Of a stretch of DNA of 38,975 nt, positions 9,382-30,401 are shown in pieces. Below the pieces are notes generated by a model. It was not told where the DNA came from. It searched no databases and was given only the letters and a program-made list of their open reading frames with translations. The number at the start of each line of letters is the position of its first letter. The stretch's first letter is position 1. The stretch comes from an uncultured Gammaproteobacteria bacterium (lineage in GTDB: Bacteria > Patescibacteriota > Patescibacteriia > Patescibacteriales > Patescibacteriaceae), in NCBI GenBank assembly GCA_964401085.1, contig CAYNWZ010000001.1, positions 1-38,975 on the forward strand, written 5' to 3'. The position numbers and the translations under genes are program-made.

Positions 9382-9457
9382 GGTCACGTCGCCAAGAGGC
9401 TAAGGCAACGGTTTGCAAAACCGTCATTCGTGGGTTCGACTCCCACCGTGACCTCCA
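9382..9457 (+). tRNA. tRNA-Cys (anticodon GCA), CCA encoded
   Basis: GGTCACG..ACGGT TTGCAAA ACCGT..GTGGG TTCGACT CCCAC CGTGACC T CCA. Confidence 0.9.
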
Positions 9458-9475
9458 TTAGCTCCGACCAATTCC

Positions 9476-9484
9476 TGTGGATAA
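9476..9484. promoter_or_regulatory. Perfect-consensus DnaA box (TGTGGATAA, the reverse complement of TTATCCACA)
   Basis: 9/9 match to the E. coli-type DnaA box consensus. It is part of a 14-bp string, GTGGATAACTTGTG, repeated exactly at 10284. Confidence 0.5.
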
Positions 9485-9628
9485 CTTGTGAATCTTGCTC
9501 AGCTTTGGTCTATAACTCTCTAGACAAACGCTCCAATTCAGACCTAATCTCAAATGTCTACAGTTAAGTAGACAGCCCGCAATTATTGGTGATTACAAGA
9601 ATAGTCCACACAACTCTACCCTAAACTC

Positions 9629-9657
9629 TTGACGACTTTTTCTTTTTTTGCTATACT
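9629..9657 (+). promoter_or_regulatory. Strong sigma70-like promoter with no protein gene downstream
   Basis: TTGACG (9629-9634), 17-nt T-rich spacer, TATACT (9652-9657). Confidence 0.6.
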
Positions 9658-9663
9658 GTGGAT

Positions 9664-9884
9664 ATCGTTCTTTTTAGACCTCTTCTCTGGTCTCTCCTAA
9701 AAAACAAAAATAAAAAAATTGGACCCAGTGTTTCTATAAAAGAAACCGCAAGGTTCCCTGAGACCGGTTAAGAATATAGTTCTTGAAATTTTTGCAAAAA
9801 ATTTCAAGGGGAAGGCCGTCGGAGCTATTTTCTATTATTACTTTATGTAAATTGAAGGGCTCGTCTGTGGCCTTCCTTTTGTTT
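9664..9884 (+). ncRNA. Candidate structured small RNA of about 220 nt, class unassigned
   Basis: It is bounded by the 9629 promoter and a terminator-like hairpin (ggaaggcc 9810-9817 pairing with ggccttcc 9869-9876, then TTTTGTTT). Internal hairpins are agacc/ggtct, gtttct/agaaac and a perfect 12-bp stem, cttgaaattttt/aaaaatttcaag (9782-9808). There is no ATG-initiated ORF. Confidence 0.4.
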
Positions 9885-9897
9885 ATAAAACTCCGGC

Positions 9898-9926
9898 TTG
9901 ACGATTCGTTTTTTTTTACCTACAAT
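9898..9926 (+). promoter_or_regulatory. Sigma70-like promoter for the tRNA-Arg/tRNA-Ala unit
   Basis: TTGACG (9898-9903), 17-nt T-rich spacer, TACAAT (9921-9926), 29 nt upstream of the tRNA-Arg 5' end. Confidence 0.55.
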
Positions 9927-9955
9927 AATCAGCGTCAACTTGTTTCCCGAGGACA

Positions 9956-10027
9956 GCCCTCATAGTTCAATGGATAGAACAAGGGACTCCTAAGCCCTAG
10001 ATCCGTGTTCGACTCATGGTGGGGGCA
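9956..10027 (+). tRNA. tRNA-Arg (anticodon CCT)
   Basis: GCCCTCA TA GTTC AATGGATA GAAC..loop CTCCTAA..CCGTG TTCGACT CATGG TGGGGGC A. The acceptor stem has one G-U pair, and the anticodon stem has one A-G mismatch at its last pair. Confidence 0.8.
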
Positions 10028-10051
10028 CAGGAATAATAATTAAATATTTAT

Positions 10052-10128
10052 GGGCCATTAGCTCAGTTGGCTAGAGCGCTTCCATGGCATGGAAGAGGTC
10101 AAGGGTTCAAGTCCCTTATGGTCCACCA
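10052..10128 (+). tRNA. tRNA-Ala (anticodon GGC), CCA encoded
   Basis: GGGCCAT TA GCTC AGTTGGCTA GAGC G CTTCC ATGGCAT GGAAG AGGTC AAGGG TTCAAGT CCCTT ATGGTCC A CCA. Confidence 0.9.
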
Positions 10129-10282: not shown

Positions 10283-10302
10283 AGTGGATAACTTGTGGAT
10301 TA
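10283..10302. promoter_or_regulatory. Pair of near-consensus DnaA boxes (AGTGGATAA and TGTGGATTA)
   Basis: Two 8/9 matches to TGTGGATAA, 2 nt apart, about 55 nt upstream of the yraN start. Contains the second copy of GTGGATAACTTGTG. Confidence 0.45.
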
Positions 10303-27668: not shown

Positions 27669-28805
27669 TTATTTGCGCAGCGGCACAATAATATATTGAT
27701 AATTATCGTCTTTAGGGACGCTGATTTGACAGGCGGCGACATCGTCAATTAATTTAATTATCACCTGGCCAGTCGATAAAATATTTAAGCACTCCAAAAG
27801 ATAGCGATAATTCAAGCGCACGCTATTATTTTGGCCGTCAATTTTGGCCGTCAATTCAGCTTGCTGACTGCCGGTTTGTCCCGCCACCGCCTCAATAATA
27901 ATTTTTTGCTCAAGACTATTAACAGTTATATCAATAGCATTGGTCGTATTAGCACTAAAAATAGAGGCCATTTTAATGGCTCGCGATAATTCGCCGCGAT
28001 CAACAATGGCTTCCGTCTTAAAATTAACTGGCAGAACCTGCTCATAGTCAGGGTAATGACCCTCGATTAATCTAGAAACGATAGTTGTTCCTTGATAGAC
28101 AAACATTGCTTGATTGTCAGATAGGAATAATTTTAATTGATCGGCATCTCCAGATAATTCATCGGTCGAAGAATTAATAATCCGTGAAATTTCCTGCATT
28201 GTCTTAAATGGTATAATCACCTTTAACCCATCAGCGCCAACTTGTCCGGACTCTAAAGAGAAATCTAACTCGGTCTTGGCTAAACGAAAACTATCGGTTG
28301 CTACTAAATTCATTGCCTTACCCTTAATATCAAATAAGACGCCGGTTAATTCTAGGCGATTATCACCAGGATTAATTGCAAACAATATTTGGCTAAGCGC
28401 ATTTTTTAGACTGGTAACTGACAAATTAAAGCCAATTTTTTTATCAACCTGAGGAATAACTGGAAAATCTTGTGCTTCCTGCCCCTTGATGACCGTATTA
28501 TATTGTTGGCAATTAATTTTTAATTCCTTTTTATCTAAAGATATATCTATTTTTTCGTTTGGCAACAGGGCAATATAGTCGCTTAATATTTTAGCATCAA
28601 CAGTGATCTCACCATCTTTATCGGCTTTACCTCTAATTTGTTTTGTGATGCCTATCTCCAAATTGGTTGCTGATAAATTGATTAAACCATCTTTAATACT
28701 AATCAAAACATTATTAAGTATCGGCATGCCGGCATTCTTAGTGGCGATATGTCCAACGGTGGTTAATCCTTGGTGGAGATTTTTTTGTAGGATGGTTAGT
28801 TTCAT
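27669..28805 (-). CDS. dnaN: DNA polymerase III beta sliding clamp
   Basis: 378 aa. The N-terminus MKLTILQKNLHQGL..V..I....A..PILNNVLI and the three-domain length fit DnaN, and it lies immediately downstream of dnaA. Confidence 0.9.
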   Translation of the reverse strand: MKLTILQKNLHQGLTTVGHIATKNAGMPILNNVLISIKDGLINLSATNLEIGITKQIRGKADKDGEITVDAKILSDYIALLPNEKIDISLDKKELKINCQQYNTVIKGQEAQDFPVIPQVDKKIGFNLSVTSLKNALSQILFAINPGDNRLELTGVLFDIKGKAMNLVATDSFRLAKTELDFSLESGQVGADGLKVIIPFKTMQEISRIINSSTDELSGDADQLKLFLSDNQAMFVYQGTTIVSRLIEGHYPDYEQVLPVNFKTEAIVDRGELSRAIKMASIFSANTTNAIDITVNSLEQKIIIEAVAGQTGSQQAELTAKIDGQNNSVRLNYRYLLECLNILSTGQVIIKLIDDVAACQISVPKDDNYQYIIVPLRK

Positions 28806-29012: not shown

Positions 29013-30401
29013 TTAATAAGTTGAAGTAATCGCTTGGGTAATTTGGTCTATGTCTTGTTTTAATTGGTTGTTGGTTTTTAGGTCGGCCTCAATTTTGGTG
29101 CAAGCATACATAGCGGTGGTGTGATCGCGTCCGCCTAGTTCTTGGCCGATGGCCGGGAATGAGGCATTAACTTTGGTACGTAGTAAATACATAGCAATTT
29201 GGCGCGGACCAACTAACTCTTTTTTGCGACTTTGGCCAGTTAATTCAGCGACGTTAATATTATAAAAATTGGCGACCGCTTCTAATATTTTTTGTGGAGT
29301 GGATAGATTGCTAGTCTGAATGGAGGTAAAAAATTCTTTTAGTACTTGTTGAGCAACGGCGATGTCGGGAGAGCAATTATGAAATTGGCAGAAACCCATA
29401 ATCCGATTGAGAGCACCCTCTAGTTCCCGGACATTATTGTTGATGTTAGTGGCAATATATTGAATTATGGATTGATCTAGGGAAAATTGTTTTTGTTGAC
29501 ATTTGGTATTTAAGATAGCCATTCTGGTTTCTAGGTCCGGTTGACTGATGTCGGCCACCATACCCCACTCAAAACGGGTAATTAACCGAGCTTCTACTGC
29601 TTTCATGCTGCGTGGCGGTCGGTCCGAAGTAATAACTATTTGTTTATTGGCACGATGCAGTTGATCAAAGGTATGAAAAAACTCTTGCTGGGTGCCGTCT
29701 TTGCCGGCCATGAACTGGATATCATCGATTAGCAGCAGATCAACGTTACGGTATAGGCTTTTAAAAGTGTTGCCGCGGCCATGATAAACAGCTTCAACAT
29801 AATCATTGGTAAATTTTTCTGAGGTCACATAGAGGACTTTTTTGCCAGACTTAATTAATTCATGGCCAATTGCTTGTAGGAGGTGGGTTTTGCCCAGGCC
29901 GACTCCGCCATAAATAAAAAGTGGATTGTAGGTTTCGCCGGGTTGACGCACCGCTGCCCAGCAGGCAGCATGAGCCAATTCATTATGCTTGCCAATCACA
30001 AAGGTTTCAAAAGTATAACGCGGATTTAGTCCAGCCGACAAACAGGCTTGCTGATCAGCGGTTGGTTTGATGTCGACTATGGGTTCTGTTGGTTGTTTAT
30101 CTTCAGTGACTAAAAAATTGTTAGTTGGCGTGGCGTGTTGCGGTTTAAGTTTTATAATATACTTAATTTCTGTTGGTTTCTTGCCGGTAATCTTATTGAA
30201 TATATGGACAATTTCTTGACTGAATTTAGTTTCAAACCAGGCCCGGGTAAAGCCATTGGGAACGCCGATGGTTAAAACATCTTCTTCATAGCTAGAGATA
30301 AAGGAGTTTTTAAACCAAGTGATGAAATTGGCTTTAGAGATAGTTAATTCGGCTTCGCCTAAAATAGCTTGCCAGATTTGTTCTAAGGAGGGGTGTTCCA
30401 T
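29013..30401 (-). CDS. dnaA: Chromosomal replication initiator protein DnaA
   Basis: 462 aa with Walker A GGVGLGKTHLL, Walker B LLLIDDIQF, sensor motifs, and the C-terminal DNA-binding helix-turn-helix (..GGRDHTTAMYA..). Confidence 0.95.
   Translation of the reverse strand: MEHPSLEQIWQAILGEAELTISKANFITWFKNSFISSYEEDVLTIGVPNGFTRAWFETKFSQEIVHIFNKITGKKPTEIKYIIKLKPQHATPTNNFLVTEDKQPTEPIVDIKPTADQQACLSAGLNPRYTFETFVIGKHNELAHAACWAAVRQPGETYNPLFIYGGVGLGKTHLLQAIGHELIKSGKKVLYVTSEKFTNDYVEAVYHGRGNTFKSLYRNVDLLLIDDIQFMAGKDGTQQEFFHTFDQLHRANKQIVITSDRPPRSMKAVEARLITRFEWGMVADISQPDLETRMAILNTKCQQKQFSLDQSIIQYIATNINNNVRELEGALNRIMGFCQFHNCSPDIAVAQQVLKEFFTSIQTSNLSTPQKILEAVANFYNINVAELTGQSRKKELVGPRQIAMYLLRTKVNASFPAIGQELGGRDHTTAMYACTKIEADLKTNNQLKQDIDQITQAITSTY

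Follow-up and report, generated by a model that had tools for sequence, protein, structure and literature searches.

Several kinds of stand-alone structured RNA are known from bacteria. 6S RNA (SsrS, RF00013) is a single-copy, housekeeping-style RNA of approximately 200 nt, which folds into a closing stem, a central bubble and a terminal stem, and the RNA of the signal recognition particle (SRP; 4.5S RNA) is another small stable RNA. The CrcZ/CrcY-type RNAs of Pseudomonas carry several A-rich motifs (AAnAAnAA) that are bound by Hfq/Crc. Finally, raiA motif RNA, OLE and the ROOL/GOLLD class are conserved multi-helix RNAs whose function is unknown. In Patescibacteria (candidate phyla radiation, CPR), which account for a large part of bacterial diversity and possess minimal genomes, RNA biology is almost unexplored. 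Here we analysed a 38,975-nt stretch of DNA from one such bacterium, called the window in the following (contig C1 of host genome G000, which is 745 kb in size and 92% complete; all coordinates are positions in the window). On its + strand, at 9629-9885, lies a unit composed of a conserved extended sigma-70 promoter, a segment of about 221 nt without a conserved reading frame, and an intrinsic terminator. We put the probability that the locus encodes a genuine structured RNA with signals of its own, belonging to a family not yet described, at approximately 0.9. Its novelty would lie at the level of the RNA family; stand-alone structured RNAs as such are familiar from bacteria. As for its function, we tentatively propose, with a probability of about 0.35, that it is a stand-alone, trans-acting and probably protein-binding RNA (forming a ribonucleoprotein, RNP, or sequestering its partner) with an unpaired A-rich strand as the recognition site.

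The RNA family was defined with three covariance models (CMs): R1, built from the genus of the window; R2, which is R1 supplemented with weak matches in two other genera; and R3, based on alignment A4 of 21 sequences from other genera and families, none of them from the window's genus. The CM E-values come from a short calibration and are rough, and all counts refer to sampled genomes, so that a genome in which the RNA was not found does not necessarily lack it. Of ten further species of the genus, nine carried the unit (75-99% identity), each with one copy and with the same tRNA surroundings. In the window, matches to R1 (265.8 bits) and R2 (247.6 bits) spanned positions 9660-9887, and R3 recovered the same copy with 45.5 bits (E = 2e-7 genome-wide). 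The sequence of 227 nt starting at 9660 has a minimum free energy of -62.4 kcal/mol, compared to -46.1 +/- 3.9 in shuffles (z = -4.19), and none of 200 shuffles was as good. For the genus alignment, RNAalifold predicted a structure of 52 pairs, and compensatory double changes were seen in 14. When this structure was refined for ten species, 94.7% of the cells were paired versus 39-62% in registers slid by 1-3 columns, and 13 pairs had changed on both sides. The parts of the unit referred to below are as follows, all on the + strand.

9629-9657 (+): extended sigma-70-type promoter, TTGACG, 17 nt and TGnTATACT (promoter scan, conservation in the genus)
9664-9884 (+): predicted RNA, about 221 nt (CM matches, predicted ends)
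9667-9672 (+): 5' GUUCUU motif, which can pair with AAGAAU at 9770-9775 (helix P1) in the window's genus
9687-9694 (+): 5' strand of helix P2 (CUGGUCUC), pairing with 9760-9767
9699-9718 (+): unpaired A-rich strand AAAAAACAAAAAUAAAAAAA, family motif AAAA-Y-AAAAA-Y-AAAA
9721-9756 (+): hairpin P3 in the junction, GGACC...GGUUC around GUGUUUC-UAUAAAA-GAAACCGC (fold, covariation)
9760-9767 (+): 3' strand of P2 (GAGACCGG; consensus fold, covariation)
9770-9775 (+): AAGAAU, the 3' partner of GUUCUU in P1, matching the GUAGAAAG extension of P2 in larger members
9782-9808 (+): P4, a 12-bp hairpin (CUUGAAAUUUUU-GCA-AAAAAUUUCAAG), 9782-9793 pairing with 9797-9808
9809-9877 (+): terminator hairpin P5, long and with inner helices (GGGAAGGCCG...UGGCCUUCCU); its closing stem joins 9809-9818 to 9868-9877 and is followed by UUUGUUU (terminator-like site, covariation)
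9878-9885 (+): U-rich tail (UUUGUUUA) of the intrinsic terminator (sequence, terminator scan)

The promoter consists of TTGACG at 9629-9634 and TATACT at 9652-9657, separated by 17 nt, with the extending TG at 9649-9650. It scored 10/12 in a promoter scan, in which the region held 10 promoter-like sites versus 5.1 expected. In the form TTGAC[CG]-N17-TGnTATACT it was conserved in all ten members of the genus, as was the U-run, and order-level members possess an equivalent promoter (TTGAC-N17-TGGTATAWT). From these signals, the RNA would start at A9664, 7 nt past the -10 element, and its 3' end would lie inside the U-run. A second promoter (TTGACG-17-TACAAT, 9898-9926) is located upstream of tRNA-Arg(CCT) (9956-10028) and tRNA-Ala(GGC) (10052-10128). 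On the + strand between both promoters, there was no ATG-initiated frame of at least 20 aa, and only GTG/TTG frames of 23-60 aa were present. The indels in the A-rich tract of genus relatives measure 1-3 nt and are not multiples of three; because they shift the frame, coding was excluded and a small protein gene was rejected. A gene on the opposite strand was rejected as well. The invariant G-U pairs would become A-C mismatches there, which places the RNA on the + strand, and the scores that the CMs reached on the reverse strand (24-32 bits) are due to the palindromic hairpins.

Individual helices were supported to different degrees. In P2, 100% of the cells were paired and three pairs had changed on both sides in the genus alignment; the helix is homologous to the order consensus CUUUCUACUGG/CCGGUAGAAAG, in which 8 of 11 pairs covary. 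P3 showed compensatory UA/CG and GC/AU changes in the genus and was supported at order level too. The same holds for P5, where seven pairs had changed on both sides and 97-100% of the cells were paired in the genus (100% in the closing stem). The GUUCUU motif was invariant in all ten genus members and was also found in genera g7 and g5 and in some order-level members, but as the P1 pairing never varies, covariation says nothing for or against it. P4 of the window is the reduced form of a long arm, which at order level (CCCUGAAGG...CUUUAGGG plus inner helices) covaries. Within the genus, the sequence of its stem was constant in ten species (down to 75% identity), 11 of the 12 pairs never varying, and as DNA it represents a near-perfect 27-bp palindrome. 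The stem is thus more conserved than a helix requires, which suggests that it may be recognized in a sequence-specific manner. Taken together, the comparisons show that the RNA is real and its fold under selection, and, judged by its signals, that it is an independent transcription unit.

The original prediction, made from the letters of the window alone, had listed a near-consensus promoter firing into a segment without ATG-initiated frame, a terminator hairpin with a U-run, a further promoter ahead of the two tRNA genes, an A-rich single-stranded tract and a perfect 12-bp stem at 9782-9808. All of these were recovered at the positions given above. It had also proposed two mutually exclusive pairings of GGUCUC (9689-9694), of which only one stood: the pairing with GAGACC (9760-9765) is backed by UA/CG and CG/UA swaps, whereas that with AGACC (9676-9680) was lost in six species (G008, G006, G002, G004, G007 and G009). 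A structural switch between AGACC/GGUCUC and GGUCUC/GAGACC was therefore rejected, the second pairing alone being conserved and the switch having no support from covariation.

The window copy proved to be a small member of its family, as typical order-level members are 290-380 nt long. Behind the promoter, they start with an AU-rich 5' sequence that often contains GUUCUUU; hairpin P0 comes next, and then P2. Enclosed by P2 are, in this order, a hairpin Pa, the unpaired UAAAAYAAAAAYAAAAWAA and hairpin P3. On the 3' side of P2, hairpin Pb is followed by the long arm P4, in which the internal sequences UAGGGAUUUU and GAAAUAA are conserved. The RNA ends with the terminator hairpin P5 (GGGGCUCAG...CUGGGCCCC) and a U-run, the latter being present after P5 in all family members. 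The loop of Pa (CCGAC) is complementary to the loop of Pb (GUCGG), and both change together (for example GUUCAC/GUGAAC, CCCAC/GUGGG, GCAGAC/GUCUGC and UGUUGA/UCAACA). In alignment A4, the resulting kissing helix was 95.7% paired and all five of its pairs covaried. The overall structure of A4 was 84.3% paired versus 75.4 +/- 0.6 in shuffles and 39-60% in slid registers; 42 of its 65 pairs had changed on both sides versus 25.9 +/- 3.1 in shuffles, and none of 500 shuffles reached the observed value. The window's genus shares with genus g7 the loss of both Pa and Pb and the shortening of P4 to a plain hairpin, while P2, the A-strand, P3 and P5 are retained. This joint loss of Pa and Pb is further evidence for the kissing contact. 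The window copy is a minimised 221-nt member, and the reduced form defines a natural minimal version of the RNA. The shared core would then be a P2-closed junction in which the near-invariant A-strand is displayed beside P3, with the arm P4 and the long terminator hairpin P5, and the larger members would add to it a 5' hairpin together with Pa and Pb and their kissing loops.

The complex architecture, a tertiary contact proven by covariation and the conserved internal loops of P4 represent an order typical of ribozymes and riboswitches. From this, one could assume a self-contained catalytic or ligand-sensing RNA, in which the A-strand makes tertiary contacts inside the RNA (A-minor or triplex) instead of serving as an external site. 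However, the reduced genus forms remain conserved although they lack the kissing loop as well as the internal loop of P4. Neither a recognisable cleavage-site or ligand-pocket signature nor a match to an Rfam ribozyme or riboswitch was found in the RNA, and we regard this explanation as quite improbable.

Next to the genus, the family was widespread in the order and beyond. With R2, the RNA was found in 18 genomes out of 40 from the family. At order level, where every genome was at least 90% complete, 27 of 40 contained it, and these represented most families of the order. These family- and order-level matches were weak (27-52 bits). A tRNA-Cys(GCA) gene was present a few hundred nt upstream on the same strand for 15 of the 17 best order-level and 6 of 7 family-level matches (21/24 in total), and as this synteny is evidence independent of the model, it validates the weak matches. 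Two CM matches, L058 (genus g6) and L083, had no tRNA-Cys and a different appearance, and were not accepted as members. As for other families of the class, R3 with strict filters detected the RNA in 8 of 40, and anchoring on the conserved downstream gene (see below) added another eight, i.e. at least 16 of 40 families. A-strand motifs in three further upstream regions hint at more divergent members. In a phylum-wide sample searched with R3, one genome labelled as lying outside the class gave 197 bits and one gave 41.7 bits, the others being at noise level. The former match (locus L106 in genome G132, labelled 'same phylum') is a full-size copy that resembles order members; either the family extends outside the class, or this bin of 90 contigs is misplaced or mixed. 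A separate observation concerns G023, a 77% complete genome of a sister genus, where two differing tRNA-Cys and RNA loci (L024 and L027) occur on two contigs. R1 gave them 39 and 32 bits and R2 106 and 88 bits; the locus may have been duplicated, or the bin may combine more than one strain.

Comparison with described RNA families gave no counterpart. In Rfam 15, only tRNAs were found in the window at gathering score, nothing meaningful appeared in 9400-10000 at E<=10, and 16 related loci of other families gave tRNAs and noise only at E<=0.5. The 6S model (RF00013), which detected 6S RNA in 5 of 14 known genomes used as a control, matched nothing at E<=1 genome-wide, at E<=10 in 9400-10000 or at E<=0.5 in the 16 related loci. 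Two further candidates were rejected, since the genome has its own copies elsewhere: RNase P RNA at C4:14882-15262 (192.5 bits) and tmRNA at C49:2046-2429 (108.3 bits), ARAGORN finding no tmRNA in the window. SRP RNA (RF00169 / RF01854) was matched neither in G000 nor in eight related genomes nor at the locus itself. PF02978 and PF00448 were absent from G000, in which no SRP54-type GTPase motif set was found either, and E. coli Ffh gave a best E of 1 in tblastn against this genome. Searches with Pfam, motifs and protein queries found no Ffh or FtsY in 61 order genomes or in about 180 phylum genomes, and a 25.9-bit 'SRP54' match in another genome turned out to be a Mur ligase. A divergent SRP RNA was thus rejected for want of both a model match and Ffh/FtsY: in an organism that has no SRP proteins, the locus cannot be SRP RNA. 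The breadth of this absence is striking in itself, an SRP system being detected in 0 of 101 near-complete genomes; the absence of the two SRP subunits in many CPR bacteria has already been reported (PMC8080830).

A prior description of the RNA family was not found in the searchable literature, the coverage of which is incomplete. The features of a stand-alone bacterial small RNA (sRNA) gene in general, i.e. a conserved promoter, an intrinsic terminator, no conserved open reading frame and a selected structure, were all observed. The family-model tests hence agree with the original prediction in that the locus is none of SRP RNA, 6S RNA, tmRNA and RNase P RNA. The follow-up that it had proposed, an Rfam scan together with a search for homologues and covariation, produced no family match at gathering score or E<=10, homologues in relatives and covarying helices. 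Its picture of an orphan structured sRNA unit needs to be amended: the own promoter and the structured non-coding RNA were borne out, while the isolated orphan has become a reduced member of an order- to class-wide family.

Our proposal on function starts from the A-strand. None of the consensus folds pairs it, no other segment of the family is as conserved, and in the order alignment it yields the longest invariant stretch of columns. The pyrimidines within it keep a constant spacing of 6 nt, the strand is kept in other orders, and it is also retained in the reduced genus forms without Pa, Pb and most of P4. As a conserved unpaired strand in an RNA with its own promoter and a Rho-independent terminator, as in trans-acting sRNAs, it might seed pairing to U-rich or G-containing sites in mRNAs or 3' tails (as might another conserved single strand), which would make the RNA a base-pairing riboregulator. 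The strand is indeed complementary to terminator tails of the UUUUGUUU type, its own tail included. However, when G000 was searched with the reverse complement of the A-strand, the only extended match was the gene itself, and the 11-mer core TTTTTGTTTTT occurred just 14 times. In the U-tails of family members, no G is kept at a fixed position, whereas the A-strand pyrimidines are fixed, and consequently there is no covariation of the A-strand with the tails. On these grounds, pairing of the A-strand was rejected both for U-tails (that of the RNA itself or those of others) and for a long antisense target. Moreover, a size of 290-380 nt and a kissing loop are far more elaborate than in seed-type sRNAs, and the organism has no Hfq. 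A riboregulator of this kind is therefore unlikely.

With no extended target and no covariation with tails, recognition by a conserved protein is favoured. The rigidly presented A-strand would be the recognition site of a conserved protein partner, and the RNA would act in trans, either as an RNP or by sequestering its partner. We examined two candidates for this partner. Hfq (PF17209) was absent from five RNA-positive genomes, and no Sm2 motif was present in G000, so that an Hfq sponge was rejected; a CsrA motif was not found either. G000 also encodes, at C16:7119-7328, a protein of approximately 100 aa with a single RNA recognition motif (RRM; RNP2 LYVGGL, RNP1 KGFGFVEM, RRM_1 76 bits). RRM_1 was present in 22 of 41 class genomes and in only 2 of 14 control genomes. 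It did not co-occur with the RNA (2/8 RNA-positive versus 18/31 RNA-negative genomes), and the RRM protein was rejected as the partner.

The gene neighbourhood offers two other explanations. At order level, a gene for a 3D-domain protein and tRNA-Cys precede the RNA, which is followed by a co-oriented gene for a DksA/TraR-type (YlyA-like) zinc-finger protein and by lspA. In other orders, the linkage to tRNA-Cys is lost, and the DksA-type/lspA pair, which we take to be the ylyA-lspA arrangement known from Bacillus subtilis, is still located directly downstream. The RNA lay immediately upstream of the DksA/TraR-type gene and co-oriented with it in eight order-level and seven class-level loci, and 11 of 12 CM matches anchored on this gene placed the RNA in the same manner. 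In some genera, the arrangement differs: in g4, g5 and g7 the RNA faces a convergent yidC-yidD-rnpA cluster, and in the window's genus (g1) tRNA-Cys (9382-9457 in the window) is found upstream of the RNA and the tRNA-Arg/Ala promoter downstream. In G000, the ylyA-like gene and lspA reside at C34:5486-6297 on the - strand, directly behind a tsaE-like gene, with a promoter of their own (TTGCCA-17-TATACT) and without a copy of the RNA.

This conserved, co-oriented place directly upstream of ylyA-like/lspA across the class might indicate a cis-acting leader (riboswitch or attenuator) of the operon, the genus copy being orphaned. Such a leader would account for a terminator at the end of the RNA, as in leaders that attenuate transcription, and for the fact that the orphaned copy lacks Pa, Pb and the inner part of P4. 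Nevertheless, promoter-like -35/-10 pairs intervene between the U-run of the RNA and the ylyA-like start codon in 11 of the 16 loci listed, and in the window the second promoter and tRNA genes come next. Inspection of the consensus folds and the alignment showed no conserved competitor of P5, although no dedicated search was run. Selection on structure persists where the RNA is unlinked from the operon, i.e. in g1 with its tRNA promoter and in g4, g5 and g7 with convergent yidC; unlinked copies of the window's genus still show structure-preserving substitutions, and this structural conservation argues for a function in trans. Given the intervening promoter-like sites and the unlinked yet conserved copies, the leader hypothesis is weakened, and we give it little credence.

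The other explanation is a functional analogue of 6S RNA, which would bind RNA polymerase and be tied to the YlyA-like factor, with a fold unlike that of 6S. YlyA of B. subtilis binds RNA polymerase. The RNA gene adjoins the DksA/TraR-type gene at both order and class level, its promoter and terminator are of the housekeeping style, and no 6S RNA was detectable in the genome or in the related loci. On the other hand, the fold supported by covariation is a multi-domain junction with terminal hairpins and contains no rod with a central bubble. The neighbourhood is also weak evidence, as ylyA-lspA is an old operon that the RNA may merely adjoin, and the linkage is broken in the window's genus and in g4, g5 and g7. 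An analogue of this kind thus appears doubtful at best. Somewhat less probable still is its most specific form, a class-wide housekeeping RNA that would work together with the YlyA-like factor on RNA polymerase, the A-strand being engaged by the enzyme; if this were true, bacteria without detectable 6S RNA would possess a structurally unprecedented counterpart of it.

Several points weigh against the trans-acting, protein-binding RNA that we prefer, and against the extent of the family as given above. Both candidate A-binders that were examined fail, Hfq being absent and the RRM protein not co-occurring. The strong class-wide linkage to the ylyA-like gene would fit a role in cis or at the level of the operon as well. 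Instead of being bound by a protein, the A-strand might make tertiary contacts inside the RNA (A-minor or triplex) or seed short stretches of base-pairing. Finally, the prevalence figures for distant members depend on weak CM scores (20-50 bits) in addition to synteny.

Apart from the RNA, the region contains a perfect DnaA box (TGTGGATAA, extended as TGTGGATAACTTGTG) at 9476-9490, just past tRNA-Cys and 184 nt upstream of the RNA. Its position was conserved in 7 of 10 genus members, and a near copy (GTGGATAACTTGTGG) is located at 10285-10299, downstream of the tRNA-Ala terminator. The genes dnaN (27669-28805) and dnaA (29013-30401) lie together on the - strand. The cumulative GC skew reaches its minimum at about 27-28 kb, and the segment at 28-29 kb is low in GC (0.336). 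The origin of replication probably lies near dnaN/dnaA, about 19 kb from the RNA.

Genomes of 0.6-1.4 Mb thus keep an RNA of 220-380 nt with its promoter, terminator, an invariant 17-nt strand and, mostly, a kissing loop. Because it has been retained across the order and much of the class, its conservation suggests that the RNA may do something important. The alignment, the fold backed by covariation, the two conserved neighbourhoods and the site for mutation described here make it directly testable.

Among known systems, SRP RNA resembles the locus in being a small stable RNA gene, here in a tRNA-rich region of a genome without annotated SRP RNA, but no GNRA-capped domain IV motif was seen by eye in the window RNA (it was not formally searched for). 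The CrcZ/CrcY-type RNAs share with it unpaired A-R-N triplets (AAY AAA AAY AAA ...) on a structured scaffold. They differ in that the window RNA has one tract of 17-20 nt (about six ARN triplets) in place of several motifs, Hfq is missing here, and there is no similarity in sequence or structure, the sole match being 11-bit noise on the opposite strand. As for 6S RNA, the likeness lies in a stand-alone, single-copy gene of about the same length with a sigma-70 promoter (by sequence), in the family RNA adjoining a gene for an RNA-polymerase-binding factor, and in the genome having no other detectable 6S candidate. In contrast to 6S, the window RNA is built of a junction and hairpins, its two ends do not pair with each other, and its 3' end is an autonomous terminator hairpin. 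From raiA motif RNA, OLE and the ROOL/GOLLD class, it is set apart by size, motifs, phylogenetic range (Patescibacteria), the lack of an Rfam model match and the lack of an association with mobile elements. With these RNAs it nevertheless shares its general character, i.e. a conserved, covarying multi-helix RNA with a tertiary contact, restricted to a lineage.

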